From positions 1 through 41,012 of the forward strand of contig WFVN01000011.1 of NCBI GenBank assembly GCA_015491615.1: a stretch of DNA of 41,012 bases, in the 5' to 3' direction. The notes under the pieces were generated by a model. The model ran no database searches. It saw only the letters and a list, made by a program, of their open reading frames with translations, and was not told where the DNA came from. The DNA comes from Gammaproteobacteria bacterium (GTDB lineage: Bacteria > Pseudomonadota > Gammaproteobacteria > S012-40). The position numbers and the translations under genes are program-made. Positions 12,648-28,256 of this stretch are shown one piece after another. Every line of letters begins with the position of its first letter. Positions within the stretch are counted from its first letter, which is position 1.

Positions 12648-12676
12648 TTGAAAGCGTTTTGGCCTCGTGCTATACA
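12648..12676 (+). promoter_or_regulatory. Candidate sigma70-type promoter (TTGAAA - 17 nt - TATACA) upstream of the micro-ORF and cytochrome c4 gene
   Basis: The -35 TTGAAA is at 12648-12653, followed by an exact 17-nt spacer and the -10 TATACA at 12671-12676. It lies in the 388-nt divergent intergenic region. This is sequence pattern only. Confidence 0.3.
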
Positions 12677-12727
12677 TGCCAAGGCTTCAGAATTGTCGAT
12701 ATTTTGTATGGAGGGGGATATCAAGCT

Positions 12728-12820
12728 ATGGTTACCACGGGTGACGTATTTTTGACGTATCTGCTCGTTTGCGTGTTGTTCTTTGGTCTGGCCATCGTGA
12801 TGTATAAAAAGAACGCCTGA
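12728..12820 (+). CDS. Candidate 30-aa single-TM micro-protein
   Basis: The Shine-Dalgarno GGAGGGGGA ends about 9 nt before the ATG at 12728. The product MVTTGDVFLTYLLVCVLFFGLAIVMYKKNA has one hydrophobic helix and a basic C-terminus. It lies downstream of the candidate promoter. Confidence 0.4.
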   Translation: MVTTGDVFLTYLLVCVLFFGLAIVMYKKNA

Positions 12821-12898
12821 CGGCGCGTTGGCCTCGGCGGCGAAGCGGTGATGTTCGGCCGCTTTGTCGGCTGACATACATAGGGAGGGTTTCAATCA

Positions 12899-13654
12899 AT
12901 GAGTGACAAAACGATTCAGGGGCTGCGCAAGATGGCGCTCGTGGCGGTCGCTTTGGCCGTGCCGATGGCGGCTAGCGCAGGGCCCGAGCCGGGTAAGGTC
13001 ATGAAGACCGCCAATATCGAGAATGGCAAGAACATCTACTTCAACGGCAAAGGCGATGTCCCTGCTTGTGCTTCCTGTCATGGGCAGGATGGTTTGGGTG
13101 ACGACGCTATGGGAACACCGCGTTTGGCCGGACAAGGTTTCACTTACGTCCGCAAGCAGTTGGAAGATTATGCCAGCGACAAGCGCATGGATACCACCAT
13201 GTTCGTCATGAACGCCAACGCCAAGGGATTGAGTGAGCAGGATCGTATCGACGTCGCCGCATATCTCTTCCAGTGGAAACAGCCTTACACCGGCTCGGAT
13301 CTGAAAGCGGTCGAAGAGTTGGGCCAGCCGATAGGTAAGCGTCACCTTGGCAAATCTCTCGTCATCTATGGTGCGCCGGAGAGGGGTATTACTTCTTGCT
13401 ATGCTTGTCACCAGTACAATGGGCGGGGTGCATACCCCATTTATCCTGAGCTGCTGGGGCAGAGGTACGTCTATCTGGTGAACCAGCTCAAGAAATGGCG
13501 TGATGAGAGCCGGACCAATGATCCGGGCGCGCAAATGCGGGAAGTGGCAAAGAATATGTCTGATGAGGATATCTATAACGTTGCTACCTATTTGTCTACG
13601 GCGCCGCCCAGCACTATCGGGAATTCTTACGTCCCGTATCATCCTATACCATAA
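12899..13654 (+). CDS. Periplasmic diheme cytochrome c (c4-like)
   Basis: SD AGGGAGGG lies upstream. A signal peptide is present (ALVAVALAVPMAASAG). There are two CxxCH motifs (CASCH, CYACH), each followed by a class-I cytochrome c half (RLAGQ...QL..Y, LLGQ...QLKKWR) as in c4/c553 diheme proteins. Confidence 0.85.
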   Translation: MSDKTIQGLRKMALVAVALAVPMAASAGPEPGKVMKTANIENGKNIYFNGKGDVPACASCHGQDGLGDDAMGTPRLAGQGFTYVRKQLEDYASDKRMDTTMFVMNANAKGLSEQDRIDVAAYLFQWKQPYTGSDLKAVEELGQPIGKRHLGKSLVIYGAPERGITSCYACHQYNGRGAYPIYPELLGQRYVYLVNQLKKWRDESRTNDPGAQMREVAKNMSDEDIYNVATYLSTAPPSTIGNSYVPYHPIP

Positions 13655-13670
13655 GGCGGACACACTAATA

Positions 13671-13698
13671 AAAACGGGGCCCATCCGGCCCCGTTTTT
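13671..13698 (+). terminator. Rho-independent terminator after the cytochrome c4 gene
   Basis: AAAACGGGGCC (13671-13681) pairs perfectly with GGCCCCGTTTT (13687-13697) around a 5-nt loop and runs into a T-tract. It lies 17 nt after the stop codon. Confidence 0.8.
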
Positions 13699-13801
13699 AT
13701 TTGTTAATTTGATAGAACTCGGGTGACAACGTTAGGTCTGAAGAATGAATGCAAATATTTCGTTATTTGTTTTGCCGTAGGAATCGGAGGATAATTAGCC
13801 G

Positions 13802-14359
13802 ATGGGGAAGAAGCAGCCCTTGAAGCAGGGCGAAAAAATTCTGTTCGGTATATTTGGGGTTTTTTTGGGGCTGGCGGTTCTCGCGTATGCCATTCTAGAG
13901 ATAGTGCGTCTCAAATCGGAAGAACCCATATTCCAGTCCAGGACAAGTTATGCGTTGTCGGAAGAGGGTAAGCTTGGATCCAAGTTATTTCGCGAGCGTC
14001 GTTGTACCGCATGCCATCGCGCCATGCGTAATGGAACGAACATGGGTCTGAATCTGGATGGAATCGGGAGTCGAAAAAATGTCGATTGGCTCTACGGTTT
14101 CTTGAGTGAGCCGGAAAAATATTACGGAGCTCCCACGCTCGATCATGGCTATCGCCCCAAAGAAGCGGCCTATGTTGCCGACCTGCCCGAGAGTGAGCGT
14201 CGTGCCATCGCCGTATTTTTGTCGGAATTGAAATCTGAAAGAGGATCCGCTTCCGCATGGGTACCACCTGAGGACGACTCCGGTTTTATCGATAAGATGA
14301 TTCGACTCTGGGCGCCGCCGGAATGGGCGGAAAAATATGAAGATGTGAGGGAAAAATGA
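13802..14359 (+). CDS. Membrane-anchored monoheme cytochrome c
   Basis: An N-terminal TM helix (ILFGIFGVFLGLAVLAYAIL) and a single CTACH. The LDGIGSRKNVDWLYGFLSEP segment resembles the CcoO-type heme domain and is paralogous to ORF 20533..21009. Confidence 0.8.
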   Translation: MGKKQPLKQGEKILFGIFGVFLGLAVLAYAILEIVRLKSEEPIFQSRTSYALSEEGKLGSKLFRERRCTACHRAMRNGTNMGLNLDGIGSRKNVDWLYGFLSEPEKYYGAPTLDHGYRPKEAAYVADLPESERRAIAVFLSELKSERGSASAWVPPEDDSGFIDKMIRLWAPPEWAEKYEDVREK

Positions 14360-14895
14360 ATAGCCAACCCGACAAGAAACCGTGGGAAGAGGAGGAATAC
14401 ACGGGCTACACCCTACGCTTTATCTATGCTTGTATTGTCTACGCCATCATTGGTTTTTCATGGGGCGCTTTGATGGGAGGGGTCTCAGAGTTCAGGCATT
14501 TCGTCGATCATCGTTTGCATGGTGATCTCATCGTTCGCGCCCACACCCACATCAATCTTCTAGGGTGGGTGGAGATGGCCATTTTTGGTGCTGTTTACTA
14601 CCTTATCCCGCGCCTGGTCAAGCGAGAAATCTACAGTATGGGACTGGTGAAGGTACATTTTTGGATGCACAACTTCGGCTTGATCGGTATGGTGGTACTG
14701 TTCACCGTGGCGGGTATCATCGGTGGGCGTGCGAGTTTGCACATGACACCCGATCAGATCGAGCCTTTGGTGAGGCCTTGGCTTGCGGGTGTGGGGCTGT
14801 TCGGGACGTTGGTCCTCATCGCCAATATCATTTGGGGCTACAATATCTTCAAGACCTGTAGGGGCTGGAGGTTGGCCTATGTTGCGGAGAAATAA
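14356..14895 (+). CDS. Four-TM paralogue of helices X-XII of the CcoN-like subunit (stand-alone heme-copper oxidase subunit I C-terminal fragment)
   Basis: The ATG overlaps the preceding stop (ATGA). My hand alignment to residues 334-407 of the 16637..18043 product gives 28/74 identities without gaps. These include LHG....AHTH..LLGW vs VHG....AHAH..LLGF, AVYY, KR.IYS and H.WM. The C-terminal IANIIWGYNIFKT vs IGNIVWLYNMYKT match adds 8/13. Confidence 0.8.
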   Translation: MNSQPDKKPWEEEEYTGYTLRFIYACIVYAIIGFSWGALMGGVSEFRHFVDHRLHGDLIVRAHTHINLLGWVEMAIFGAVYYLIPRLVKREIYSMGLVKVHFWMHNFGLIGMVVLFTVAGIIGGRASLHMTPDQIEPLVRPWLAGVGLFGTLVLIANIIWGYNIFKTCRGWRLAYVAEK

Positions 14896-15394
14896 ACTCG
14901 AGATTGCAGTGCTGTTCATGGTGTTCTTGGCGACTGTTGGTTGCCTATCCAAGGATGCCAGCGTCAAGGTCGGTGAGTCAGTGCCGAGCATCAAGACTAA
15001 GACCCTTGCGGACGTGGGAGGAGATTTCTCTCTCATCACGAGCTATCGTTATCCCGATGAGCGTATGTACCAGTTATCCCTTGATGAGGCGCTTCAAGCA
15101 GGTCGTCCCATCGTACTTGAATTTGCTACGCCAGGACATTGTACGGTTTGCGATAAGCAATTACAGATGCTCAAGGGCTTACTGGACAAGTATGAAGACG
15201 AGGTGATTTTCCTCCACATGGATCAGTATCAGAATCCCGAGGCATTTAAAGCTTTCAAGGTCATCGGTGACCCTTGGACGTTCGTCATCGATGAAAATGG
15301 AATCGTTCGATACAAACAGCCAGGTCGCGTGCTTTACAACGAGCTCGATTGGGTTCTCAGCAAAGTACTTGGTGGTGAGCAGGGTAACGTCTGA
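14879..15394 (+). CDS. Thioredoxin-fold lipoprotein with CxxC motif (TlpA/redoxin-like)
   Basis: The ATG at 14879 lies inside the last 17 nt of the preceding gene. The signal peptide ends in a lipobox-like FLATVGC. FATPGHCTVCDKQ is a Trx-like CxxC context, and the PWTFVIDENG cis-Pro region is typical of redoxins. Confidence 0.7.
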   Translation: MLRRNKLEIAVLFMVFLATVGCLSKDASVKVGESVPSIKTKTLADVGGDFSLITSYRYPDERMYQLSLDEALQAGRPIVLEFATPGHCTVCDKQLQMLKGLLDKYEDEVIFLHMDQYQNPEAFKAFKVIGDPWTFVIDENGIVRYKQPGRVLYNELDWVLSKVLGGEQGNV

Positions 15395-15846
15395 TGGCAA
15401 AGCGCAAAGAGTTCATCATTCGTCCAGACAAGCGGGGTGTTTGGTGGGATTTGCTCTTGTATGTGCCGACGGTGATCATTCTTATGCTGATAGGCTTGAA
15501 GCTATGGTACTCGGGTAAAGAAGGTTGGGGTTACCTCTTGGAATTTCTCGCGACGTTTTTTGCCTTCGTAGGGGGAAATCGCATCGCTACGCGTTTGCAA
15601 CTCACTGGTAAGTCACCGGTGAAGGTGACGGTGGACAAGCAAGCCGTTTTGGTCGACTTGAAAAAAGGAGAACAAGTCGCCTTGGTGAAGAATGTTAAAT
15701 TCTTCAGTGATTATGCAGGGCGGTCGTTTGCGGTAAGCGGCATCGATAGTAGGGGGGAGAAAAAAAGCTATGTCTTCCACAAAGGGCAATTCACATTGGA
15801 GGATGAATACAAGTCCGCCCTGTCCGCTCTACGGGTTTTTGCTTAG
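15394..15846 (+). CDS. Membrane protein with two N-terminal TM helices and a ~90-aa soluble domain (possibly bacterial PH-like)
   Basis: The ATG overlaps the preceding stop (TGATG). The hydrophobic helices are LLLYVPTVIILMLIGLKLW and YLLEFLATFFAFVGG. I recognised no catalytic motif. Confidence 0.6.
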   Translation: MAKRKEFIIRPDKRGVWWDLLLYVPTVIILMLIGLKLWYSGKEGWGYLLEFLATFFAFVGGNRIATRLQLTGKSPVKVTVDKQAVLVDLKKGEQVALVKNVKFFSDYAGRSFAVSGIDSRGEKKSYVFHKGQFTLEDEYKSALSALRVFA

Positions 15847-16034
15847 CCACGTTTTGCGCGGTAAATGTTCCGGGCAAGGATGGCGAGGACAAAGATACCT
15901 ATGATTTCCGCGATGAGAATGATAATCAGTTTTGCTTCGTCGGTGACGAAACCATCCACCATCATATGAATCGAGTAGCCCAGCAAGAACAAGAAGCCAA
16001 ATGCCGATATAAGGTAAAGAGCTATTTCTTTCAT
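15843..16034 (-). CDS. Small two-TM membrane protein (63 aa)
   Basis: This is the only minus-strand ORF inside the cluster. The hydrophobic product is MKEIALYLISAFGFLFLLGYSIHMM...LIIILIAEIIGIFVLAILA with an RNIYRAKRG tail. Its 3' end overlaps the convergent gene by 4 nt. Confidence 0.45.
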   Translation of the reverse strand: MKEIALYLISAFGFLFLLGYSIHMMVDGFVTDEAKLIIILIAEIIGIFVLAILARNIYRAKRG

Positions 16035-16204: not shown

Positions 16205-16468
16205 ATGAATAAGCTTCTGATTTGTATCGTTGCCGGAATGACCACCGGAATGGGCAACGGGAGCGTCTTTGGGGCGACGTTGATGTGCTTTCTTGGGCGT
16301 GGCAAATTCGAGGATTGGGGTGGGGCGCCCAATGCTTTGAACTTCCACCCCGCGACTTTCACTGGGTTCGTGGACTGGGTGATGATCGTGTTTGGCGTGG
16401 CCTTTGTCATCATCATGGTGTTGGCCTTGGCGAAACACGAGCAGCTTGAGGCTGCAGCGTCGCGTTGA
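16205..16468 (+). CDS. Small membrane protein (87 aa), first gene of the oxidase operon
   Basis: A strong SD (AAGGGAGGGG) lies 4 nt before the ATG. The product has a hydrophobic N-terminus and a C-terminal TM helix (FVDWVMIVFGVAFVIIMVLALA). Confidence 0.6.
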   Translation: MNKLLICIVAGMTTGMGNGSVFGATLMCFLGRGKFEDWGGAPNALNFHPATFTGFVDWVMIVFGVAFVIIMVLALAKHEQLEAAASR

Positions 16469-16524: not shown

Positions 16525-16617
16525 ATGGCGACATTCGCTAGTTTCTGCGGGATTCTGCTCGCGTTCGCGAGCATGTGGTTTGCTTGGTATCTGCTGATGC
16601 CGCGGGAACGCGGTTAA
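16525..16617 (+). CDS. Candidate 30-aa single-TM micro-protein immediately upstream of the CcoN-like gene (CcoQ-position peptide)
   Basis: It is absent from the ORF track because it is shorter than 60 aa. SD AAGGAGGGGGA ends 4 nt before the ATG at 16525. The product is MATFASFCGILLAFASMWFAWYLLMPRERG, with TAA at 16615-16617, 19 nt before the next start. Confidence 0.5.
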   Translation: MATFASFCGILLAFASMWFAWYLLMPRERG

Positions 16618-16636: not shown

Positions 16637-18043
16637 ATGCTTAAATATCTCTTCATGAGGAACGAAGATATCCCGCCCGGCACTGCGGCAGTTTTCTTCG
16701 GCTTCTCCTCAATCGTCTGGTTTGTGCTTGGTACCGGGCTTGGATCTTTCAATGCGGCCAAGCTGGCCTTCCCGGACTTCGTCACGGGTATCGAGATGCT
16801 GTCTTTCGGGCACATGCGGCAGGTGCACGTGCTCGCCGTGATCCTGGGATGGATCTCCATGGCGTTCGCCATGACCATGATGTACATCACGCCTGCCCTG
16901 GGTAACACCAAGCTCTGGTCCGAGAAGTTGGGGGTTTGGAACTGTGCCCTCTGGAACATCGGCCTTGCATTGGGTCTCTTCCTCCTCTGGATCGGTATTT
17001 CCTCCGGGCGTGAATATTCCGACCTCATCTGGCCCGTCGATCTGGTCGTTATCTTTGGTGTTCTCTTTCCGCTCGGCTTGAATGTCTGGATGACGATCAA
17101 GAATCGTCGTACCCAAGGTATTTACACCACGAACTGGTTCTTTGGTGCGGCCGTTTTCATGGTCATCGTGGTATTCCTGGTGGGTAACACCCCCGAGTTC
17201 TTCAATCTAACTGGTCTGACGGAAGCCTATCTGACTTGGTGGTTCGCTCACAATGTGTTGGGTCTATGGATCACCCCGGTAGCCGCTGCCATTTCCTACT
17301 ATGTGGTGCCGAAAGTCACGGGTAATCCACTGTACTCACACCGTATCGGCCATTTGCATTTCTGGTCGGTCGTGGTGTTCTACTCCACGCCCGCTGCGCA
17401 CCATTTGATGGCTGCGCCTCTGCCGGAGTGGCTTAAATCCTTTGCCTCCGTGGAGGGTGTGTTGATTCTGGTGCCGGCCATTGCCTTTGTGTCCAACCTC
17501 CTGTTGACCATGACCGGTAAGTGGCGGATGTTCGTCGAGAACATCGAGATCAAATACACCATCACGGGTGTATTGCTCGCCATTCCTTTAAACGTGCAGG
17601 GTGGTTTCCAGCAGACCCGCGCCATCAATTGGTACGTGCATGGTACAGGCTGGATCGTCGCGCATGCGCACTTGGCATTGTTGGGCTTCTCTACCTTCCT
17701 CGAGGCTGCAGCAGTGTATTACGGTCTCCAAGTGCTGTTGAAGCGGAAGATCTACTCTCTGGCCTTGGCCAATTTCCACTACTGGATGTTGCTCATCGGC
17801 TTCTCCATCTACTGGATTTCCATGACCATCGCAGGTCTGATCCAGGGTGCGGGTAAGATTTACGAAGTGCCCTACATTGATGTGGTGATCGCTGAGCATC
17901 CCTACATGATCGCTCGTTGGGTCGGTGGGACGTTGGTGTTCATCGGCAACATCGTGTGGTTGTACAACATGTACAAGACGGCGGTCGCTGGTACGCCTAT
18001 CCCGGCGGGTCGCCTACCTCATGAGCTGGCCTACGAGCGTTGA
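16637..18043 (+). CDS. ccoN: C-family (cbb3-type) heme-copper oxidase subunit I, CcoN-like
   Basis: SD AGGGGAGG lies upstream. The product is 468 aa with 12 predicted TM helices. Ligand motifs are FGHMRQVH (H64), WWFAHN (H205), FYSTPAAHH (Y249, H255, H256) and VAHAHLALLGF (H343, H345). Confidence 0.9.
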   Translation: MLKYLFMRNEDIPPGTAAVFFGFSSIVWFVLGTGLGSFNAAKLAFPDFVTGIEMLSFGHMRQVHVLAVILGWISMAFAMTMMYITPALGNTKLWSEKLGVWNCALWNIGLALGLFLLWIGISSGREYSDLIWPVDLVVIFGVLFPLGLNVWMTIKNRRTQGIYTTNWFFGAAVFMVIVVFLVGNTPEFFNLTGLTEAYLTWWFAHNVLGLWITPVAAAISYYVVPKVTGNPLYSHRIGHLHFWSVVVFYSTPAAHHLMAAPLPEWLKSFASVEGVLILVPAIAFVSNLLLTMTGKWRMFVENIEIKYTITGVLLAIPLNVQGGFQQTRAINWYVHGTGWIVAHAHLALLGFSTFLEAAAVYYGLQVLLKRKIYSLALANFHYWMLLIGFSIYWISMTIAGLIQGAGKIYEVPYIDVVIAEHPYMIARWVGGTLVFIGNIVWLYNMYKTAVAGTPIPAGRLPHELAYER

Positions 18044-18069: not shown

Positions 18070-19020
18070 GTGGCATTCAGAGAATATAAAATCGGGGTGC
18101 GAATGTTCGCATTCGCCCTCGGCAGCTCCATGATCATCACTCTCTATTTCCCGAGTGTAGACATGGCATCCGTGCAGGCGACCGAATACGCCCTGAAACG
18201 GCAATTGGCCTATGGTCGCATCGGTGGGTTCAGCTATGAAGATCCCCTCTTAAAGGGCTGGGGCAAGCCGGTCACTGTCACTCTGGACAAGGATCCGGTG
18301 ACGGGCAAGCCCATTGAGCCGACGGAGGCATATGTTTATCCCCCTGGGACGCCATTCCCCAGCGGTATTACTCATCCCCGTATCCTGGGTGAGGGTGTGG
18401 AGGACTTGAGTGTTTCGGTGGGACGGATCAGCGAGGCCAACAAGGAGAATGGCGCCGTATTCATCATCCGCGAAGGTGAGTTCCAGGGGCAGACGGTTGC
18501 GTACATTGAGAACGCAACGGCCACTCGCGGTTGGCAGGCGCAAACCACTTTGGCCGCTGTCTCCGATGATGCGCGTCAATATGTCGGGTCGGGCAAGATC
18601 ATGTTTGTCCGCGAAGGTTGTTGGTGGTGCCATACCTTGTTGCCGGAACAAACGCAGGACTGGCAGTATTTCGGTGCGCCACCGATGTTAGGTGACTTCA
18701 ACGGCGAGTCGCCGACCGCCTTCGGCTCTGACCGTAAGGCGCCCGATCTGCTGCATGTGGCTTCCCGCAACTCCTCGCGGGAATGGATGAAGTTACATTT
18801 CTTCAATCCTCGACTCGTCCAGCCGCACTCCATCATGCCCCGCTACGATTATCTCTGGGGTGAGGTGGATGCCGAAGGAAATAAGATCGACTACGACCGG
18901 TGGCGCGCGGAGTACGATGAGTATGTGGAAGGGAAGCGGGTCTATCCGCCCGAAGTGCCCGAGCCGCATCCCGATAGTGAGGCTCGGAAGCTCATTGATT
19001 TCATGATGTTCTTGAAATAA
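18070..19020 (+). CDS. ccoO: CcoO-like membrane-anchored monoheme cytochrome c subunit with a ~115-aa insertion
   Basis: The GTG start lies 8-9 nt after SD GAAGGGAGGA. An N-terminal TM helix is followed by REGCWWCH (Cys184-His188 by my count). The remainder follows the CcoO pattern: GSDRKAPDL, SREWMKLHFFNPR and SIMPRYDYL (Met ligand context). Confidence 0.85.
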   Translation: MAFREYKIGVRMFAFALGSSMIITLYFPSVDMASVQATEYALKRQLAYGRIGGFSYEDPLLKGWGKPVTVTLDKDPVTGKPIEPTEAYVYPPGTPFPSGITHPRILGEGVEDLSVSVGRISEANKENGAVFIIREGEFQGQTVAYIENATATRGWQAQTTLAAVSDDARQYVGSGKIMFVREGCWWCHTLLPEQTQDWQYFGAPPMLGDFNGESPTAFGSDRKAPDLLHVASRNSSREWMKLHFFNPRLVQPHSIMPRYDYLWGEVDAEGNKIDYDRWRAEYDEYVEGKRVYPPEVPEPHPDSEARKLIDFMMFLK

Positions 19021-19820: not shown

Positions 19821-19841
19821 TTATTTATTGAGGTAAATGGG

Positions 19842-19874
19842 GGCCGCCGCATGTTTTCCATGCGGCGGCCTTTT
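19842..19874 (+). terminator. Rho-independent terminator ending the CcoN/CcoO operon
   Basis: GGCCGCCGCATG (19842-19853) pairs perfectly with CATGCGGCGGCC (19859-19870) around a 5-nt loop, followed by TTTT. Confidence 0.85.
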
Positions 19875-21027: not shown

Positions 21028-21498
21028 TTGAAGATGCGGCGTCGAGGCTGGGATTATTGGTGGAGACGTTCGTTGACCGGGGTGGTCGCCCTGGGGCTTG
21101 GTTGTTTGGTGGTATTTCTTGGTAATAAGATCCTAGGACAGCGCTTGGAATTATTCTATGGCTTAGAGACCTTTAATCCTGTTTGGTTCCTACAGGTGTT
21201 CATCGTACCGGCGCTTGCTGGGATTGTAGTGTCTTTCATCTATGGTTTGGGTGGTAAATGGCATGCCTATTTTCCTCCTTTGATCGTAGGTATATTTCAA
21301 TATTATGAATCGGCCAATTGGTTGCCACTGCCTGAAGGGGCGCAATTGATGCCCATGGGATGGTGGGGATTCATCATGATTTTGGCCATGGAGTCGGGTG
21401 GGATCGGTGGTGTGCTGGGTGAGGTCTTGAACAAGAGGATTTACGGTAGAACCCCTAAACATTTGTTGTACAAGAGTGATTCAAACTCCAACCGTTGA
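21028..21498 (+). CDS. Four-TM membrane protein of unknown function
   Basis: The start is TTG at 21028 or ATG at 21034. Four hydrophobic segments are present. I recognised no motif. Confidence 0.55.
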   Translation: MKMRRRGWDYWWRRSLTGVVALGLGCLVVFLGNKILGQRLELFYGLETFNPVWFLQVFIVPALAGIVVSFIYGLGGKWHAYFPPLIVGIFQYYESANWLPLPEGAQLMPMGWWGFIMILAMESGGIGGVLGEVLNKRIYGRTPKHLLYKSDSNSNR

Positions 21499-21519: not shown

Positions 21520-22593
21520 GTGGTATCCATGCGAAATCCCCACAGAAAGCTCTCACCCGAACAAAAGGCGCTGAGGAAGCGTTTTTTGTATGCCACGTTA
21601 GTGACATCCGTGGCACTTGCCATGATCGGCGGTAGTTGGCATGTCATTGAATTGGGTGCCATTCGCATGGAGGAGATGCGGGCGCGTGCCACCTATGATT
21701 TGTCGGAAATGGATAAGAAGTTACGCGCGGCGGGTGAAGATATCATTCGCCATGCGATGCATGAGAAAGGGCTGGTACGATTCGATTACGAACTGATAGA
21801 AATCGAGTCTTTACTCACCCATGAACAGTGGGCAGAGTTGGAGCGGATGATTTTGATTCCGGAGGGCGAGTTCATTGCTGGTACGGATCTGAAATCGGCC
21901 GATCCACAGGACAAACCGGCTCATTCTGTTTATTTGCCCGATTATATGATCGACAAATATCCTGTGACTGTGGCTCAGTATGCCCGTTTCGTGGCTGCGA
22001 CGGGTCATCGCCCTCCCTTGGATTGGGAAAATGGGCGTTTTCCTAAAAACAAGTTATTCCATCCGGTGACCATGGTGGGTTGGTTCGATGCCCGAGACTA
22101 CTGTGCCTGGGCGGGGAAGCGATTGCCGACGGAATACGAGTGGGAAAAAGCCGCGCGCGGGACGGATGGCAGGCGCTGGCCATGGGGCAATCATATGGAT
22201 CCTCAGCGTTTGAACACCTATTACAGCGTCGGTTCGACCACCGATGTGACGGCGTTTCCCGATGGAGTGAGTCCTTACGGTGTCTATGACATGGCAGGTA
22301 ACGTCTTTGAATGGACGGCCTCCGATTTCAAGCCTTATCCGGGCTCGGATGCTCCGAGAATCCTGTTTCAGGTGAAAGTGCCCGTGGTACGGTCAGCAAA
22401 GGACAAGGCGCAAGGAGTTGCTGACTTGGAATTTGTCGAAGGTGTCTATTACAAGGTTTTGCGAGGTGGATCATGGAAGAGTGATCCGTTTTCTACGTCC
22501 GCATATCATCGGAATTATGCGCTGGCGAGAAACGCTTCCGATTTTTTTGGTTTCAGGTGTGCGGCGGATGTCGAAGGGGGTGATAAAAAATGA
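21520..22593 (+). CDS. Membrane-anchored FGE-sulfatase (SUMF1/formylglycine-generating-enzyme-like) domain protein
   Basis: An N-terminal TM helix (LYATLVTSVALAMIGGSW) is followed by the FGE-fold pattern: IPEGEFIAGT, H.V.L..Y.IDKYPVT..QY..F, HPV..V.W.DA..YC.WAGKRLPTE.EWEKAARG, WPWGN, G.YDM.GNV.EW, LRGGSW and GFRCA. The start is GTG at 21520 or ATG at 21529. Confidence 0.8.
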   Translation: MVSMRNPHRKLSPEQKALRKRFLYATLVTSVALAMIGGSWHVIELGAIRMEEMRARATYDLSEMDKKLRAAGEDIIRHAMHEKGLVRFDYELIEIESLLTHEQWAELERMILIPEGEFIAGTDLKSADPQDKPAHSVYLPDYMIDKYPVTVAQYARFVAATGHRPPLDWENGRFPKNKLFHPVTMVGWFDARDYCAWAGKRLPTEYEWEKAARGTDGRRWPWGNHMDPQRLNTYYSVGSTTDVTAFPDGVSPYGVYDMAGNVFEWTASDFKPYPGSDAPRILFQVKVPVVRSAKDKAQGVADLEFVEGVYYKVLRGGSWKSDPFSTSAYHRNYALARNASDFFGFRCAADVEGGDKK

Positions 22594-22817
22594 ACGGTCG
22601 TTCGCTGGCCCTGTTGTGTTTGTTGTTGTCGTTCGTGTCGCCGGTCTATGCGGTGGATAGTTATCGCTATTTGCGAGTGACCATCGATACGCCGTGGATG
22701 ATTTTCTTGGGTTTGGCGACGGTCGTCATGTTACCTTTTATTCTCCTCATGATCTTGTATTGGTATTTCGCGGTGAAGAAAAAACCTGGTGAGGAGTCTA
22801 CCGGCGGTGAAGGTTGA
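22590..22817 (+). CDS. Small secreted/membrane protein (75 aa; signal peptide plus one TM helix)
   Basis: The ATG overlaps the preceding stop (ATGA). It has the signal peptide LALLCLLLSFVSPVYA and the TM helix IFLGLATVVMLPFILLMILYWYF. Confidence 0.5.
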   Translation: MNGRSLALLCLLLSFVSPVYAVDSYRYLRVTIDTPWMIFLGLATVVMLPFILLMILYWYFAVKKKPGEESTGGEG

Positions 22818-22818: not shown

Positions 22819-23166
22819 ATGGGGCGCTGGTTGCTCGCTTGCGTGGTGTGCTGGGCGTTTGTCAGTAATTCGGTTTGGGCCGATGAGGTGGCGAGCGGCG
22901 AGGGGGGTGAATCGTTGCATGTCATCAAGCCCTTCGTGGAGCAGGAGATCGACCGTGAGATGTTCACGGAGGAAGAAAAACATCAGATCCTGTTCTACAT
23001 GGGTGTGATCTTGTTGTTGTTGTTGATCGCCACCGTCGCTTTCGGGATAGGAATGGTGTTGTTCGATAAACCTTGGTTCGTGGGCCACATGGTGTCCGCT
23101 GGTCTGACCGTGACTCTTGCCGTCGCCCATGCGGTCGCGGCGGTGGTGTGGTTCTTCCCCTTCTGA
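22819..23166 (+). CDS. Small membrane protein (115 aa; signal peptide plus two TM helices)
   Basis: The ATG lies 1 nt after the preceding stop. It has the signal peptide WLLACVVCWAFVSNSVWA and two TM helices containing His residues (FVGHMVSAGLTVTLAVAHAVAAVVWF). Confidence 0.5.
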   Translation: MGRWLLACVVCWAFVSNSVWADEVASGEGGESLHVIKPFVEQEIDREMFTEEEKHQILFYMGVILLLLLIATVAFGIGMVLFDKPWFVGHMVSAGLTVTLAVAHAVAAVVWFFPF

Positions 23167-25790
23167 TGCGTTCCGACCCTGCCCCTTCGCGCGGGTCGTC
23201 TTACCTGCTCTTCGCTTATTTTCTCTCTGGCTCGGCAGCTCTGGGATATCAGATTCTTTGGGCCCGTTGGTTGAGTCTTCAATTCGGGGTGAGCAACCTC
23301 GGTGTGTTGTTGGCCGTGGTGGCTTTCCTGTTGGGTCTGGGTCTGGGTAGTGCTTGGGGGCTGCGGCGCATCTGGGACCCTCGGTCCGGTTTGAGAGCGT
23401 TCGTTTTCGTCGAATTGGGTGTTGCCGCTTACATGTTGATGGCTCCGATGGTTGCGGCCGGGGTTTATCCCATCATCGCCGATTTGGCGAAGGGATCGGA
23501 CTTGGGTCAATGGCTTTTCATCCAAGGGGGCGTGGCCGTGGTCATGCTCACTTTGCCGGCATTGGCCTTGGGGTATGCCTTCACGGCGTTGGTGCAGGGT
23601 TGGCGTGCTGAAGGTGCGGAATTGCACCGCCTGTATGGTTGGAACACCTTGGGCGGGGTGGTGGGTGCTTTGGCGCCTTTGATCGTCCTGCCGACTTTGG
23701 GGTGGCATGCCAGTCTTTGGGTGTTTGCCGGAATTGGGCTGATGGCCGCGGTCGTAGGGGCGTGGATGCTGCGGGGCCTGCCTTTGGGAGCGGAGCGTTC
23801 AGTGGTGTCGAGCGCAAGGGGACGGTTGGATGTGCGCCCTTTGGGGTGGTACGGCTTGGTGGGGGTGGGAGCGATCATGCTGGAGATCGCCTGGGCACGG
23901 CTGTTCGGCCTCGTCTTTCTGCGCACTGAATACGTGATGGGGGTGATTTTGGCTGTTTACTTGGCGGGCATTGGCCTTGGAAGCCTGGCCGCCATGCGAT
24001 TGCGAGGCGCGGTATGGTTGTCGGTGCTACCTCTCGGGGTGGCGGCAGCAGCGCTGGGAAGTTTGGCGTCGGTGGGGATGCTCGGTGCCTGGGTCGAGGG
24101 GCGCACGTGGTCTGGCCTGTTGCAAGCGGTGGTGGCACAGGGGGTGGTGTTGTTCGTGGTCATGGTGCCGGTGACTTTCATTCTGGGATTGTGGCTGCCC
24201 CTGTTGGCGCGTCGCATGGGTGACGATAGGCGCGCCGGTCCGGCCTTGTACGCGGCGAACAGCGTCGGTGGGGCTATTGGGGCGCTGTTGGCGGGCCTCT
24301 TGGTGGTGCCATGGGCGGGTACCACGGCGGCTGGGGTGGTGGCGGCGGGGGTGTTGTTGGCGGCTGGTCTGGCTTTGGCGCCACAGCGGTGGGCCTGGGT
24401 GGCGGCACTGCCGTTGCCAGCTTTGGCTGTACCGCTGTGGTCCATGCCCGAGCCGGCCGAGCTGTTGCCGCGCACCTACCAGGGGGCTCGGACCCTGCTG
24501 ACCTATGAGGATGCGGTGAGTATCACTCATGTGGTTTCTCAGCCTTCCGGTGAACGCTTGTTGCTGTCGGATCTTCAGCGCATGGATGCGTCCACCGAGC
24601 CCCAAGCGGTGGCTGGGCAACGCAATCAGGTGCGTTTGCCCCTGCTGTTGCATCCGGCGCCGAAACGCGTTCTGTTGCTTGGATTGGGGACGGGAATCTC
24701 CGCTTCGGCCGCCCTGGCGCTGCCCGATGTCCGGGTGACGGCGGTGGAACTCTCACGCGGGGCCATCGAGGCTGCTGATCGGTTGTTCTCCCAAGCGAAT
24801 CTAGGCGTGATGCAATACCTTCAGGTCGTGAACGATGACGTGCGCCATTTTCTCTTGGCCGACGACGATCGCTATGACGTGATCGTCGGGGATCTGTTCC
24901 ACCCGGATCTGGTCGGGCGCAGTGCCTTGTTGAGCGTGCAGCAGTTTCGCCGCGTGCGAGAACGCTTGGCTCCGGGTGGGGTGTTCGTTCAGTGGCTCAC
25001 TCTCAATCAGTTCGATACTGAGAGTCTACAGACGGTGCTGCGCTCCTTCGCCCGGGTTTTCCCCGATGGGCGCCTGTTCCTGGACGGTTTCCGCCTCGCC
25101 CTGATGGGCGGGCGCCAAGCGCCCCTCCCGGCGGTGGCGATGGCCGTGCACGAGCGGGATCTGGATCCGCGCCGCTTCGCTTTCCTCACCGGTGGCGAGG
25201 GGCGTTGGACCTGGCTGGGCCGATACTGGGGGACGGTGGCGGACCTGCCCCCGGGGCCGGTGCAGGACGAATGGGCGCCGCGCATCGAATATCAGCTCCC
25301 GCGGGCCCGTTTCGCTGGCCAAGTGGACGTGCGCGCCAACCTCGCTTGGCTGCAGGAGCGCCGACCGGGTGCGGCCCAGGCGGCCACGGCCTTGGGGGTG
25401 AAAGAGGCTTCACGATTCATGCGCGCCTATCGGGCCACCGACCTGGCATTGCGAGGGTTCCTGGCTGCCCTGTCCGAGGATCCCGCCAGCGATCGCTGGA
25501 TACGCCTCGCCTATGAGACCAACCCCGATGATCGTTGGGTCGCCACGGCCTACGCTCAGCGTTTGTTGGACACCCTGCCGCAGGCGCGCAGGCGTGGGTT
25601 GGACGAGGCCCGCGCGTTGGATCGCATTCTGGCGGTGCGTGCCGATTTTGTGCCCGCTCTCCAGCGGCGCTTGGCATTGGCCCAGGAACGGGGGGAGCGT
25701 GACCTGGTCCAATCCCTCGCTGCACGAATTCGTGTCCTCGACCCTTATGGGGCGGCCTCAAGGGCGGTTCAGGTCCCTATGCTAGACTGA
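23166..25790 (+). CDS. Fused polytopic membrane / spermidine-synthase-like (class I methyltransferase-fold aminopropyltransferase-like) protein with a helical-repeat C-terminus
   Basis: The ATG at 23166 overlaps the preceding stop (TGATG). The N-terminal ~420 aa hold many TM helices (FLSGSAALGYQILWAR...). Next comes a SpeE-like core: VLLLGLGTGISA, VTAVELS and DVIVGDLFHP. The ~200-aa C-terminus is alpha-helical and repeat-like. Confidence 0.75.
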   Translation: MRSDPAPSRGSSYLLFAYFLSGSAALGYQILWARWLSLQFGVSNLGVLLAVVAFLLGLGLGSAWGLRRIWDPRSGLRAFVFVELGVAAYMLMAPMVAAGVYPIIADLAKGSDLGQWLFIQGGVAVVMLTLPALALGYAFTALVQGWRAEGAELHRLYGWNTLGGVVGALAPLIVLPTLGWHASLWVFAGIGLMAAVVGAWMLRGLPLGAERSVVSSARGRLDVRPLGWYGLVGVGAIMLEIAWARLFGLVFLRTEYVMGVILAVYLAGIGLGSLAAMRLRGAVWLSVLPLGVAAAALGSLASVGMLGAWVEGRTWSGLLQAVVAQGVVLFVVMVPVTFILGLWLPLLARRMGDDRRAGPALYAANSVGGAIGALLAGLLVVPWAGTTAAGVVAAGVLLAAGLALAPQRWAWVAALPLPALAVPLWSMPEPAELLPRTYQGARTLLTYEDAVSITHVVSQPSGERLLLSDLQRMDASTEPQAVAGQRNQVRLPLLLHPAPKRVLLLGLGTGISASAALALPDVRVTAVELSRGAIEAADRLFSQANLGVMQYLQVVNDDVRHFLLADDDRYDVIVGDLFHPDLVGRSALLSVQQFRRVRERLAPGGVFVQWLTLNQFDTESLQTVLRSFARVFPDGRLFLDGFRLALMGGRQAPLPAVAMAVHERDLDPRRFAFLTGGEGRWTWLGRYWGTVADLPPGPVQDEWAPRIEYQLPRARFAGQVDVRANLAWLQERRPGAAQAATALGVKEASRFMRAYRATDLALRGFLAALSEDPASDRWIRLAYETNPDDRWVATAYAQRLLDTLPQARRRGLDEARALDRILAVRADFVPALQRRLALAQERGERDLVQSLAARIRVLDPYGAASRAVQVPMLD

Positions 25791-25795
25791 CGGCC

Positions 25796-27124
25796 ATGTC
25801 CAAGGTCCAATCGGTGTTCAGGATCCAGCCGGCGAAGGGCAACGCGCTGCGCACCCACCGCCTGCATCGGATGCGCCGTGCCACTCAATTAGGCACTTTG
25901 TTGCTCCTGGTGCTCATTCCTGTCAGCGGTCTCTTCCGCATCGACCCGGTGGACGGTGCCTTTGTCGTCCTCGACCGGCAGATCTGGTTCTCCGATTTTT
26001 TCATCGTCGTCGGTCTTTGGTTGGCGATGGCAAGCGGGTTGGTGATTACTTACTCCATGTTGGGGATGGTGTTCTGCGGCTGGGCCTGTCCGCAGAATAC
26101 CCTTTCCGAGTGGGCCAACGAAATGACCCATCGGTGGCTGGGGCGCCGGGCCGAGGTGACCCTGGACGGTGCCAAGATGGACGTGGCCCAGCGCAAGAAC
26201 ACCCCCCTCAATTGGGTCATCTTGGGGGCCTTGTACTGGGGGGTGTCGATGTTGCTCGCCCTTATCCCCCTATTCTATTTCTATCCCCCGGACGTGGTAT
26301 GGTCTTTCGTCACCTTCCGTGAGGACGAGCGTCTCGCCGGTTCGCTCCACTACATCTATTTCGTCTTCACTCTCATCATTTTCTTGAACATCGCTTTCAT
26401 TCGGCACTTCATGTGCCGGTTCATGTGCATCTACAAAATCTGGCAACACGGTTTCAAGACCAAGGACACTCTCCACATCGCCTATGACGCTTCGCGCAAG
26501 GCCGATTGCGAAAAGTGCAGCAAATTGTGCGAAGCGCAATGTTTCTTGGGGTTGGACCCCAAGAACACTGAGACCTACGATGCCTGTATCAACTGCGGTG
26601 AATGTATCGTCGCTTGCGATGCCGTCCATGCCAAGAAGGGAGAGCCTGGGCTGCTGCGTTTCGAGGTGGGCGAACGACAGTCGGCCCGCTTGGCCGCTTT
26701 TCGCACCAACCTGGGAAGTTTCGTCGGTCGGGTCCGCTGGACCATTCCCTTCACCGCGCTCGGCATCGGGATGTTCGTTTGGGGCCTCTACACCTACGAG
26801 CCAGAGCGCCTCACCGTCTATCAGGACGCGGAGGCAGGGCGTCAGGTGCACGACCGCTATCGGATCAACGTTGCCCACAAGCTGTACCGACCGGCGGAGG
26901 TGACGCTGGCCGTGGAGGGCCTGCCGGAGGGGAGTTATCGGCTCGAGCGTGACAGGATCTTTTTCCAGTCCACCGGTCGTGTCGATGTGCGTCTCTATCT
27001 CACGTCCCGGTTGGAGCCGGGCGTGCACACGTTTCTGGTCCGGGCGCGTTCCAGTGAAGGCTGGTCGGACGCGTTCCGGGTTCGTCATTTCGTCGCCGCT
27101 GGCGACGTGCAACAGGAGGGGTGA
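25796..27124 (+). CDS. ccoG: CcoG/FixG-like membrane iron-sulfur protein (cbb3 oxidase accessory, cupric-reductase family)
   Basis: Motifs FCGWACPQNT, MCRFMCIYKIWQ (variant of C..CPYARFQ), CEKCSKLCEAQC and CINCGECIVAC are present. A C-terminal TM helix and an Ig-like domain (FixG_C-like) follow. Confidence 0.8.
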   Translation: MSKVQSVFRIQPAKGNALRTHRLHRMRRATQLGTLLLLVLIPVSGLFRIDPVDGAFVVLDRQIWFSDFFIVVGLWLAMASGLVITYSMLGMVFCGWACPQNTLSEWANEMTHRWLGRRAEVTLDGAKMDVAQRKNTPLNWVILGALYWGVSMLLALIPLFYFYPPDVVWSFVTFREDERLAGSLHYIYFVFTLIIFLNIAFIRHFMCRFMCIYKIWQHGFKTKDTLHIAYDASRKADCEKCSKLCEAQCFLGLDPKNTETYDACINCGECIVACDAVHAKKGEPGLLRFEVGERQSARLAAFRTNLGSFVGRVRWTIPFTALGIGMFVWGLYTYEPERLTVYQDAEAGRQVHDRYRINVAHKLYRPAEVTLAVEGLPEGSYRLERDRIFFQSTGRVDVRLYLTSRLEPGVHTFLVRARSSEGWSDAFRVRHFVAAGDVQQEG

Positions 27125-27127
27125 GCC

Positions 27128-27565
27128 ATGAAGGTACCCGATCCGACCGAATACAACCGTTCCGTCAAGCCCGTCGAAGGTAGTGAATGGGGCAAGGTGC
27201 CGGAAGACAACTTCGGTTACGAATCCGACGAGGAACGCCGTAACAAACGAGGCCTGGAGGATTGGGAGCTCGTCGAGTACATACCCGAATCGCAAAGACG
27301 GGTGCCCCCCTGGTTTCTCGCCGTGGTGGCGGTGGTCCTATTGGTGGCCGTGGGGCTGAGCTTTCCCTTCTGGGGTGACCGTCCGGGCTACGAGCGTGAC
27401 TGGGTGAACTGGGGTTTCGGAGCCGCCCTGTTGTACATCGTCGTGGCGGCGTCTTTCGTCTATTTCATGGTCAATCTCTACGGCTCCAAGCTGGCCGGTC
27501 GCCTCGATTCGGACAAGGCCAAGGAGGGCCGGGACGACCAGGATGAAAAGGGCGAAAAGCCTTGA
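27128..27565 (+). CDS. Second heme-less FixP_N-like membrane protein
   Basis: RRVPPWFLAVVAVVLLVAVGLSFPFWGDRP parallels RLPVPVVGLLALTIITAFMITFPLWGHRP of ORF 19036. The core FP.WG.RP region matches at 6/10 by hand count. There are no Cys residues, two TM helices and a charged C-terminal tail. Confidence 0.6.
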   Translation: MKVPDPTEYNRSVKPVEGSEWGKVPEDNFGYESDEERRNKRGLEDWELVEYIPESQRRVPPWFLAVVAVVLLVAVGLSFPFWGDRPGYERDWVNWGFGAALLYIVVAASFVYFMVNLYGSKLAGRLDSDKAKEGRDDQDEKGEKP

Positions 27566-27861
27566 TCGATCGAGTTTTGCCCTTGAGCTTGGCCTTCGTG
27601 GTGACTGCTTGCCAGCCGGCGCAGGCACCGCCACGCCAACCCCTGCCGGACGCTGATTCTCCCGAGGCACGCCTGGTGGCGGAGCGTTGCGGTCAGTGTC
27701 ATGCGCCCCCGGCCCCCTCGCGTCACAGCGCCGAGGAATGGCCCTCGGTGGTGGAGCGTATGCGGGTGCACATGGTGCGCCAAGCGAATCAGATCTTGAG
27801 CGATGAGGAAACGCGCATCGTGCTGGATTACCTCATGAAACACGCGAGGACCGAATCATGA
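27562..27861 (+). CDS. Lipoprotein monoheme cytochrome c
   Basis: The TTG start overlaps the preceding stop. It has the lipobox FVVTAC, a single CGQCH, and downstream Met/His candidates (VVERMRVHM). Confidence 0.6.
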   Translation: MIDRVLPLSLAFVVTACQPAQAPPRQPLPDADSPEARLVAERCGQCHAPPAPSRHSAEEWPSVVERMRVHMVRQANQILSDEETRIVLDYLMKHARTES

Positions 27862-28256
27862 AAGCCTTGACCGTCATTTGGCTGTTGACCGTCGCCCTGT
27901 TGGTTGCCTGTGGGAACGGTCGCGGTACTCTCCCGGCGCAGAAGTGGGGGGAAAACATCGTCCAGGTGGAGGTGCGTCCCTCGACACCGCGGGTGGGGAT
28001 GAACGAGTTCCTGGTGGTGGTGAGCGATGCGCGCCGTCGTCCGGTACACGATCTCATCGTTTCCCTTCGTGCCGGCGACGACCAGAAATGGCGCCAGGCC
28101 ATCCAAGATGGGCGCACCGGAGTCTATCGTCGTGCTGTGCGTGTGGACGACCCGCGTACTCAGATCCTGCAGGTGAAACTCCAGCGCCGCAACGGCGAGG
28201 AGACCCTCTTGCGCTTCCCCATCGCCGCCGCCTTCGAGGGCCCCTCAGGTGGATAG
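27858..28256 (+). CDS. FixH/YtkA-like Ig-fold lipoprotein
   Basis: The ATG overlaps the preceding stop (ATGA). It has the lipobox LLVAC. VEVRPSTPRVGMNEFLVVVSDARRRPVHDL resembles the YtkA/FixH-type domain pattern (P..G.N.F.V.V.D..G.PV). Confidence 0.5.
   Translation: MKALTVIWLLTVALLVACGNGRGTLPAQKWGENIVQVEVRPSTPRVGMNEFLVVVSDARRRPVHDLIVSLRAGDDQKWRQAIQDGRTGVYRRAVRVDDPRTQILQVKLQRRNGEETLLRFPIAAAFEGPSGG

Follow-up and report, generated by a model that had tools for sequence, protein, structure and literature searches.

The closest described relative of the locus analyzed here is a conserved 26-gene region, ALP51721-ALP51744, of the cathode-oxidizing "Candidatus Tenderia electrophaga," in which the CcoN-like protein ALP51729.1 is gene 10 (Eddie et al., bioRxiv 10.1101/2022.05.06.490989, Fig. 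2B). The published list begins with a diheme cytochrome, a monoheme cytochrome, a truncated CcoN, a thioredoxin, three unnamed proteins, a small open reading frame (ORF), CcoN, and CcoO. After CcoO follow three unnamed proteins, a monoheme cytochrome, one unnamed protein, a "serine threonine protein kinase," a single-transmembrane (TM) protein, and two unnamed proteins, and the region ends with CcoG, one unnamed protein, a monoheme cytochrome, two unnamed proteins, and a truncated CcoN (bioRxiv 10.1101/2022.05.06.490989). Its authors called the region "a sort of alternative complex IV," earlier seen in freshwater iron oxidizers, treated cbb3-1 and cbb3-2 as separate partial complexes, and noted that "Ca. 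Tenderia" also has a separate canonical ccoNOQP with FixHIS genes (bioRxiv 10.1101/2022.05.06.490989). Here, we analyzed a stretch of 41,012 nucleotides from a gammaproteobacterium (GenBank assembly GCA_015491615.1, contig WFVN01000011.1, positions 1 to 41,012 of the forward strand), called the window below, which carries a cluster of 25 genes around a cbb3-type (C-family) heme-copper oxidase. The cluster is not new: it is a new copy of a kind that has been described but is biochemically uncharacterized. We consider it likely that the region is a further copy of the conserved respiratory cluster described in neutrophilic iron oxidizers (Sideroxydans, Gallionellaceae, and Zetaproteobacteria) and in "Ca. 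Tenderia," and that its C-family oxidase core works by the mechanism proposed below.

Related observations come from the iron oxidizers. A suite of 20 genes in conserved order is common to Sideroxydans ES-1 and Mariprofundus PV-1 and is partly present in Leptospirillum (Emerson 2013, PMC3770913); this is presumably the earlier sighting cited in the Tenderia preprint. After Ducluzeau 2008, the cbb3 oxidases of iron oxidizers have been divided into "proximal" and "distal" forms (Zhou 2022, PMC8788666; McAllister 2020, PMC7029218), the distal form having an altered subunit composition, and a cyc1 homologue has been linked to the cbb3 cluster (PMC8788666, PMC7029218). The citation in the Tenderia preprint, together with the presence of the cluster in metagenome-assembled genomes (MAGs) of Sideroxydans (L039 and L066), suggests that the 20-gene suite, or the distal cluster of ES-1, is the set seen here. 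In Sideroxydans ES-1, the distal ccoNO genes reach about 3-fold more transcripts per million than the proximal ones (PMC8788666). In "Ca. Tenderia," the canonical ccoNOPQ genes are poorly expressed and a noncanonical "complex IV-2" ranks with the most strongly expressed sets of genes (Eddie 2017, PMC5371394); we infer that complex IV-2 is the ccoNO discussed here.

The window CcoN and ALP51729.1 share 85% identity over all 468 residues. ALP51729.1 falls into the same 90%-identity cluster as the CcoN of two "Ca. Tenderia" MAGs, and the loci syntenic with the window include the "Ca. Tenderia" MAGs L026 and L052. From the diheme cytochrome to the lipoprotein cytochrome, the published list agrees with the window gene for gene, down to the same odd members: the truncated CcoN, the thioredoxin-like protein, the protein with the fold of formylglycine-generating enzyme (FGE), the CcoG-like protein, and the small single-TM proteins. 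Solved FGE-fold proteins have been deposited under kinase names; therefore, the "serine threonine protein kinase" of the Tenderia list, which stands at the same position, would be the FGE-fold gene. The differences are of detail only: the window copy is a block of about 50% G+C in a genome of about 70% G+C, and it ends at a convergent GGDEF gene without the second truncated CcoN, the last gene of the Tenderia region. A first-pass annotation, made from the window sequence without database searches, had taken the gene set for one not already known. The published order contradicts that claim, and although the biology it proposed was largely right, its novelty was overstated and some of its labels were too specific.

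Judged from sequence, the catalytic core is a C-family heme-copper oxidase with a monoheme CcoO partner that carries an inserted domain and with no diheme CcoP. In the CcoN-like catalytic subunit (Table 1), residues H64, E126, H205, Y249, H255, H256, H343, and H345 are invariant in all 81 clade sequences. These sites comprise both heme b ligands, the ligand of heme b3, the histidine triad of CuB, the tyrosine of helix VII by which the C family is marked, and the glutamate of the Ca site. Y249 aligns with Y251 of Pseudomonas stutzeri CcoN, the cross-link tyrosine, six positions before the histidine pair. Because none of the heme and copper ligands varies, and neither does the cross-link tyrosine, CcoN is most likely an O2 reductase. 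Its score against the ccoN equivalog TIGR00780 is 221.5 bits (cutoff, 583), and the protein is therefore a member of the ccoN family in the broad sense, outside the canonical equivalog. The clade itself is, on sequence identities, unusually tight and isolated despite spanning three proteobacterial classes, whose CcoN proteins are at least 78% identical to that of the window. In a 50%-identity library, its full-length members fall into one cluster (P0009, 86% identical to the window CcoN), and the next full-length representatives are 40% and then less than 38% identical, the exceptions being fragments and one partial match of 59% (P0361).

The CcoO-like subunit scores 59.7 bits against TIGR00781 (cutoff, 200). 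Its CWWCH motif and its methionine-containing SIMPR motif are invariant, and its length of 316 aa is conserved. An insert of about 140 residues separates the N-terminal hydrophobic segment from the heme domain, which is followed by a C-terminal extension of about 50 residues. In an AlphaFold2 model, the insert, at residues ~60 to 170 of the protein, forms a compact alpha/beta domain (predicted local distance difference test values of 84 to 97), and a Foldseek comparison of the model with the PDB gave no match at E ≤ 0.001. Directly downstream lies a heme-less 210-aa protein modeled by AlphaFold2 as a TM helix, a helical domain, and a second TM helix. Taken alone, it matches FixP_N (PF14715) at an E value of 0.011, with 15.9 bits against a cutoff of 24.9. 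All 33 of its homologues match FixP_N at E values up to 0.1 (best, 6.5e-5), and the protein therefore most likely keeps the membrane anchor of CcoP, of which it most likely lost, or never had, the diheme domain. Foldseek found no fold match for it in the PDB (E ≤ 0.001), and a search with its family sequence profile gave only noise. It is a candidate for a third subunit in the place of CcoP. As for the small peptides of the oxidase unit, the 44-aa single-TM peptide is present in every one of the 71 loci in which both flanking genes occur and is possibly a CcoQ/CcoM-like small subunit. A different 44-aa ORF at 19702-19836, in the wrong frame, was discarded (homologue in 0/80 loci, or 0/74 of those reaching the position). 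No FixQ match was found for the 30-, 44-, 84-, and 87-aa proteins at E values up to 10, and a functional analogy of the small peptides to CcoQ is possible.

The ORF listing and translation return 25 genes from 12.7 to 28.3 kb (24 on the plus strand and 1 on the minus strand), which is the chain of about 25 ORFs with a single minus-strand member that the first-pass annotation had reported. The start/stop overlaps that it read as ATGA and TGATG are found, together with TTGA, at six junctions, and its count of six CxxCH motifs in five proteins is correct. The domain labels used here come from Pfam and NCBIfam profile searches of the window ORFs, and these back most of its gene labels as well as its assignment of the locus to a C-family (cbb3-type) oxidase. 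Encoded are the divergent CcoN, the CcoO with its large insert, the heme-less protein with a FixP_N-like anchor, the truncated CcoN, four c-type cytochromes besides CcoO, CcoS-like and CcoG-like proteins, the FGE-fold protein, a fusion of an MFS-type membrane domain with a SpeE-like domain, and many small membrane proteins. The suggestion that the cluster brings its own electron-input cytochromes thus agrees with its gene content. No P-type ATPase (CcoI), CcoP, FixQ (CcoQ), or FixH (CcoH) was detectable across the whole window, as had been stated; of the ccoGHIS maturation genes, a CcoS-like gene (just above cutoff) and a CcoG-like gene (by its domain pair) are present, while CcoH and CcoI are absent from the window. 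"Self-contained," the term first applied to the system, is more than the window alone can show: CcoI, CcoH, and a canonical ccoNOQP may lie elsewhere in the genome, as in "Ca. Tenderia."

To place the cluster among its relatives, one genome per species was scanned for CcoN, which gave 207 stretches; the best 80 (81 to 93% identity) were used as the synteny set. Each window protein was searched against them by tblastn, and the denominators of this screen, given below and in Table 1, are the loci long enough to reach the expected position. The set contains Gammaproteobacteria MAGs (including "Ca. Tenderia"), Gallionellaceae and Sideroxydans, and "Ca. Nitrotoga," and the hosts of the cluster span Gamma-, Beta-, and Zetaproteobacteria. 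From the 87-aa gene through the 145-aa gene, the genes are found in 91 to 100% of the loci reaching that far, with order and strand kept, which makes the adjacency a conserved unit rather than an accident. The FGE-like, SpeE-like, truncated CcoN, and FixP_N-like genes, whose synteny with the CcoN/CcoO pair the first-pass annotation had made decisive, do travel with ccoNO in three proteobacterial classes. On a Zetaproteobacteria contig, the order is identical, starting with the TM cytochrome c and ending with the lipoprotein cytochrome c, and a close relative of the window (locus L081, GCA_054017635.1) has the identical gene set and the same left flank, with a different right flank.

Base composition sets the cluster apart from its surroundings. 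The flanks of the window, which hold housekeeping enzymes, have about 70% G+C, whereas the values are 45 to 57% at 12 to 23 kb, 58 to 66% at 23 to 29 kb, and about 50% in the cluster core. G+C at third codon positions is 0.44 to 0.78 in the cluster and 0.88 in a housekeeping gene. Such a low-G+C block between high-G+C housekeeping genes suggests horizontal acquisition. Across loci, the core (from the 87-aa gene to the gene at 22819-23166) lies 5 to 13 points below its flanks in almost every case and about 20 points below in the window, and the tail (SpeE-like and CcoG-like genes) equals the flanks. This pattern suggests either repeated horizontal transfer of the core or a constraint on its composition, and the simplest reading of the distribution would be a horizontal spread of the cluster among lithotrophs.

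The mechanism we propose is as follows. Electrons from a periplasmic or extracellular lithotrophic oxidation would reach the diheme cytochrome c4 and/or the two anchored monoheme cytochromes and the lipoprotein cytochrome, and would pass from there to heme c of CcoO, heme b, and finally the heme b3-CuB site, where O2 would be reduced. The heme-less protein with the FixP_N-like anchor would replace CcoP in the membrane, and the 30-, 44-, and 87-aa peptides would be small subunits of the CcoQ/CcoM type. Cofactor insertion would be served by the CcoS-like protein, the CcoG-like protein (of the cupric reductase type), and the CxxC redoxin, and the FGE-fold protein, the MFS/SpeE fusion, and the remaining small membrane proteins would be clade-specific assembly or structural factors. 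A bolder version, which we put forward only tentatively, is that of a distinct respiratory machine in which (i) an oxidase in which CcoO is extended, a heme-less protein substitutes for CcoP, and three or four micro-subunits are dedicated to the complex would be in physical contact with a second membrane module, the basis of which would be the truncated CcoN, still binding heme via its conserved H-x-H motif; (ii) maturation would follow a route of copper or heme insertion using the FGE-fold protein and the MFS/SpeE fusion instead of CcoI and CcoH; and (iii) the whole would be a horizontally mobile module specialized for electrons from extracellular iron or electrode oxidation.

Several points weigh against the reading of the region as a further copy of a lithotrophic oxidase cluster that works in the proposed way. 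From this material we infer that the enzyme reduces O2, which subunits compose it, and what the accessory proteins do; no biochemistry (purification or kinetics) or structure of this oxidase clade was found in the literature searched. The scores of CcoN, CcoO, and CcoG fall far short of the NCBIfam equivalog cutoffs. CcoN Q321, which aligns to P. stutzeri Glu323, is glutamine in all 81 clade members, and the tuning of the active site may therefore differ. Glu323 reportedly hydrogen-bonds the heme b3 histidine; this is said to go back to Buschmann and colleagues in 2010, but a citable statement was sought and none was found, and we treat it as a lead only. The low G+C of the core in nearly all hosts could in part reflect a composition constraint rather than recent transfer. 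Membership of the clade in the distal subtree of Ducluzeau 2008 would follow from the altered subunit composition described for the distal form (PMC8788666, PMC7029218). Finally, the upstream module (cytochrome c4, TM cytochrome c, truncated CcoN, redoxin, and 150-aa protein) is found in 74 to 80% of the loci reaching it and is missing, moved, or inverted in ~20 to 25%; therefore, it may lie outside the oxidase complex.

This last point leads to the main rival explanation, which we hold possible but clearly the less probable account: two or more independent systems would travel together, namely, a small redox module made up of those five proteins (the "cbb3-1" of the Tenderia authors) with a non-oxidase function and a true oxidase with its assembly genes. 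The cluster is indeed divided by the terminator at 13667-13701 and by an intergenic gap of about 360 bp (15847-16204), in which the minus-strand gene lies, and the module is inverted in L039 and absent in L050. The truncated CcoN, which shares 35% identity with residues 322-449 of the full-length protein and has a family-conserved H-x-H motif, consists of C-terminal helices only and cannot form a binuclear center because it lacks the CuB histidines; its gene is joined to that of the TM cytochrome c by an ATGA overlap. The separation of cbb3-1 from cbb3-2 by the Tenderia authors (bioRxiv 10.1101/2022.05.06.490989) also fits such a division. However, the modules lie side by side, in an order that is conserved, in most loci of three proteobacterial classes, the upstream module has no nameable function of its own, and a cbb3 oxidase would naturally draw its electrons from a c4-type cytochrome. 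The c4 of the cluster, its presumed electron donor, is encoded in 51/64 loci, has its CxxCH motifs at residues 57 and 167, and matches c4 structures at E values of about 1e-21. Among these is c-552 of Acidithiobacillus ferrooxidans (1H1O; E = 5e-21), which we take to be Cyc1; the protein also matches a cytochrome c4 whose sequence occurs in 8SMR, an entry that holds cbb3 subunits as well.

It is far less likely that the enzyme of our favored oxidase reading is primarily a nitric oxide (NO) reductase, or acts on another substrate, rather than on O2. The divergence of CcoN, its score under the ccoN equivalog cutoff, the kinship of cbb3 oxidases and NO reductases, and the glutamine in place of Glu323 would allow for this. 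In a search of solved structures, however, CcoN matched P. stutzeri CcoN (3MK7_A) at an E value of 2.7e-61 and NorB only at 4.6e-7. Neither the cross-link tyrosine nor any of the three CuB histidines varies. Helix VI carries WWFAHN, like cbb3 enzymes, whereas cytochrome c-dependent NO reductase (cNOR) has a glutamate-containing motif there instead. The hosts, moreover, are microaerophilic lithotrophs that express the enzyme highly during O2 respiration (PMC8788666, PMC5371394).

We find it less plausible still that this is an ordinary ccoNOQP/ccoGHIS locus whose CcoP, CcoQ, CcoH, and CcoI have diverged too far to be recognized. The FixP_N-like anchor of the 210-aa protein and the small TM peptides at positions suiting CcoQ-like proteins speak for it, but the soluble c4 is the only cluster protein with two CxxCH motifs and the only one to match the ccoP model TIGR00782 (30 bits; cutoff, 180). 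FixQ, FixH, and the P-type ATPase are unmatched at permissive thresholds, no window ORF is an ATPase, and "Ca. Tenderia" has a canonical ccoNOQP with FixHIS besides this cluster. The last alternative, that the adjacency is coincidental or that several small ORFs are not genes, draws on the ORF at 19702-19836, whose want of a homologue in any locus means that mechanical ORF lists do contain spurious entries, and it can be dismissed with near certainty on the synteny in 80 or more genomes, the 44-aa peptide in all 71 loci, the divergence of the four smallest ORFs (30, 30, 44, and 63 aa), which is third > first > second codon position as in coding DNA, and the annotation of small ORFs in related loci by independent gene callers.

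Table 1. Genes and signals of the oxidase cluster and its two neighboring genes (positions are those of the window; loci, number with the gene among those reaching the position)
Feature	Position	Strand	Observations	Loci
505-aa polytopic membrane protein	10993..12510	-	At least 7 TM; divergent from cluster, left of the 12.6 kb boundary first drawn
30-aa single-TM micro-ORF	12728..12820	+	Annotated as a 31-aa gene in L081
Periplasmic diheme cytochrome c4 (Cyc1-like)	12899..13654	+	Two CxxCH; PF00034 matches twice
Intrinsic terminator after c4 gene	13667..13701	+	15-bp stem (7 GC pairs), then T-run; strong
Membrane-anchored monoheme cytochrome c	13802..14359	+	One TM, one CxxCH; PF00034 32.6 bits	53/69
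Truncated CcoN paralogue, C-terminal helices only	14356..14895	+	PF00115 positions 310-410 of 436	53/69
Thioredoxin-fold CxxC lipoprotein (TlpA/ResA-like redoxin)	14879..15394	+	AhpC-TSA 31 bits, Thioredoxin 22.8 bits	56/72
150-aa membrane protein	15394..15846	+	No Pfam family; TGATG overlap upstream	57/73
63-aa two-TM protein	15843..16034	-	Sole minus-strand gene; two TM; coding-type codon-position divergence
87-aa membrane protein	16205..16468	+	Invariant TGMGNGSVFGA..MC..GRG; no significant Pfam match	77/77
30-aa single-TM peptide directly 5' of ccoN	16525..16617	+	Third-position-biased divergence (81 loci)	75/79
CcoN-like catalytic subunit I, C-family heme-copper oxidase	16637..18043	+	PF00115 252 bits
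CcoO-like monoheme subunit II	18070..19020	+	FixO 57.6 bits (cutoff 29.6), residues 174-264 only
Heme-less two-TM 210-aa protein, FixP_N-like N-terminal anchor	19036..19668	+	No CxxCH	75/75
44-aa single-TM peptide	19686..19820	+	MIDIDNGP...FIYSFFVD; AGGAGG upstream; coding-type divergence; independently called
Terminator-like hairpin with T-tail, closing ccoNO unit	19842..19878	+	GC-rich; by eye
84-aa two-TM protein	19938..20192	+	No family match; alternative TTG start at 19914 gives 92 aa	71/73
CcoS/FixS-like maturation protein	20220..20504	+	PF03597 23.4 bits, cutoff 23.1 (marginal)	73/73
Second membrane-anchored monoheme cytochrome c	20533..21009	+	One TM, one CxxCH; PF00034 28.5 bits	71/71
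~155-aa polytopic membrane protein	21028..21498	+	No Pfam match; conserved GE...K..YG tail	68/69
FGE-sulfatase-fold protein, hydrophobic N-terminal segment	21520..22593	+	PF03781 187 bits	68/69
75-aa protein, N-terminal hydrophobic segment (probable signal peptide) and one TM	22590..22817	+	ATGA overlap	62/63
~115-aa protein	22819..23166	+	Two C-terminal TM helices, each with a conserved His	60/61
Fused polytopic membrane domain and spermidine-synthase-like methyltransferase-fold protein	23166..25790	+	~11 TM	59/61
CcoG/FixG-like polyferredoxin membrane protein	25796..27124	+	Fer4_5 45.8 bits, Fer4_18 29.6 bits	56/59
145-aa two-TM protein	27128..27565	+	N-terminal anchor motif common with the 19036-19668 protein	51/56
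Lipoprotein monoheme cytochrome c	27562..27861	+	Lipobox VTAC, one CxxCH; DHC 24.8 bits
Conserved lipoprotein	27858..28256	+	Lipobox; conserved W.QAIQDG..GVYRRA
GGDEF membrane protein, convergent	28245..29465	-	3' overlap of 12 nt with the last cluster gene

Among the remaining genes, the pair encoding TM monoheme cytochromes is paralogous (31% identity, E = 2e-11), and BLASTP gave no significant similarity that would make them paralogues of CcoO, an assignment that was rejected. A motif LDGIGS...W is common to both and conserved in both families. In the redoxin family, the FATPGHCTxCD motif and the lipoprotein cysteine are conserved. For the micro-ORF that opens the cluster, a similar peptide was found in 13/84 loci and, by a more sensitive search, in 34/86, with divergence highest at third codon positions. 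The first screen found the 63-aa gene in 47/74 loci, in each of them on the opposite strand, and the more sensitive search found it in 53/86; it is annotated in L081 and in the Zetaproteobacteria locus L083. The hairpin that closes the ccoNO unit reads GGCCGCCGCATG-TTTTC-CATGCGGCGGCC, then TTTTACTT, and was missed by a simple terminator scanner.

Downstream of ccoNO, the CcoS-like family conserves RW..N.QFDEDIKY. The closest solved relatives of the FGE-fold protein are the C-domains of OvsA, EgtB, and ToxD, and FGE structures were matched too. In FGE, the catalytic copper-binding cysteine pair sits in the C-terminal segment. The conserved C-terminal motif of the present family, RGGSWK.DPFST..YHR, lacks a cysteine pair (by inspection, not residue-level alignment), so that the first-pass label "FGE-like" stands for the fold and falls for the enzyme: the protein has the FGE fold and is not a formylglycine-generating enzyme. 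The MFS/SpeE fusion matches NF037959 at 49.2 bits (cutoff, 40) and PF01564 at 33.7 bits, and its start is probably 23166, in view of a TGATG overlap and of agreement with an 877-aa call in L081. The CcoG-like protein scores 109 bits against TIGR02745 (cutoff, 316), with FCGW.CPQN and cysteine-rich motifs conserved. The 145-aa protein had been labeled a second FixP_N-like protein. By hhalign, its anchor is linked with a probability of 91% to that of the 210-aa family (E = 1.2e-6, 49 columns covering a TM helix plus FP[LF]WGxRP); a direct FixP_N match was found in only 1/12 family members, so that the label holds only through the 210-aa protein. The lipoprotein cytochrome has orthologues where loci extend that far, including in Zetaproteobacteria. 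The label FixH/YtkA-like for the last lipoprotein was dropped: it matches YtkA at E = 0.16, only 2/10 family members hit YtkA (best E, 0.042), FixH was never matched by the family, and there was no PDB profile hit. In the Gallionellaceae-type loci L063, L069, L071, L074, and L075, its homologue lies ~2.0 to 2.7 kb upstream of ccoN and not at the cluster end. Several cluster families have conserved methionine, cysteine, or histidine motifs that might, speculatively, suit metal handling. It is likewise speculation that the Met/Cys motif of the 87-aa protein and the two TM histidines of the ~115-aa protein could be metal or heme ligands.

The two ends of the cluster behave differently. At the left, the divergent 505-aa protein has a weak PMT_2 (GT-C) match (E = 2.5e-4, under cutoff), and a homologue lies upstream of the cluster in 36/84 loci, including the "Ca. 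Tenderia" MAG L026 and L081; the conserved unit may thus extend beyond the 12.6 kb boundary into this gene. An identification of the 505-aa protein as Cyc2 was rejected for a polytopic GT-C-like membrane protein without CxxCH. Between it and a VTT/LssY gene, a 132-aa repetitive, Gly/Val-rich ORF (10553-10951, minus strand) has weak tblastn matches in only two loci. At the right, the GGDEF gene is not conserved with the cluster (0/80 loci and 0/84 in a second count). Its absence elsewhere and the left flank shared with L081 point to a variable right junction and a common left one; in L081, DUF2007 and Pyr_redox_2 genes stand in its place. No tRNA genes or Rfam families were found in the window, so there is no clue to an integration site. 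For FNR/Anr boxes, only degenerate matches inside coding regions were found and none in the intergenic DNA upstream of the four units. The sigma-70 promoter scan gave 7 sites against 10.3 in shuffled sequence and is therefore uninformative.

The interest of the cluster lies in the oxidase clade to which it belongs, which is probably a main terminal oxidase of neutrophilic iron oxidizers and cathode-oxidizing autotrophs; in published transcriptomes, the noncanonical oxidase genes stand above the canonical cbb3 genes. Some fifteen conserved companion proteins go with it, including an FGE-fold protein without the FGE cysteines, the MFS/SpeE fusion, the truncated CcoN, and several micro-proteins. 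Their roles would reveal how a cbb3-type oxidase is assembled and supplied with copper without CcoP, CcoH, and CcoI, and also how electrons enter from extracellular donors. What the window adds is a gammaproteobacterial host of high G+C and a base composition with a clear mark of transfer, and no new kind of system.

Compared with known systems, the cluster follows the logic of the rus operon of A. ferrooxidans (cyc2-cyc1-coxBACD-rus), in which a dedicated diheme c4 (Cyc1) is encoded beside the terminal oxidase that it feeds in an iron oxidizer. Unlike that of the window, the rus oxidase is aa3-type (A family), and no cyc2 or rusticyanin gene is found in the window. With cNOR (NorCB), the core shares the superfamily and the combination of a membrane subunit I with a monoheme c subunit and no third heme subunit; the sequence match is very weak, and the window protein has the CuB histidines and the cross-link tyrosine. 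From the canonical CcoNOQP/ccoGHIS systems of P. stutzeri (3MK7/5DJQ), Rhodobacter capsulatus, and Bradyrhizobium japonicum (fixNOQP-fixGHIS), the window locus differs in the missing diheme CcoP, FixQ, FixH, and FixI, in a heme-less two-TM protein that keeps only a FixP_N-like anchor, in the ~140-aa CcoO insert without known fold, in the glutamine at the E323 position, in its many extra membrane proteins, and in scores under the equivalog cutoffs. It shares with them the CcoN fold, the metal ligands, the cross-link tyrosine and the Ca-site glutamate, the monoheme CcoO domain, CcoS-like and CcoG-like genes nearby, and a c4-type donor.

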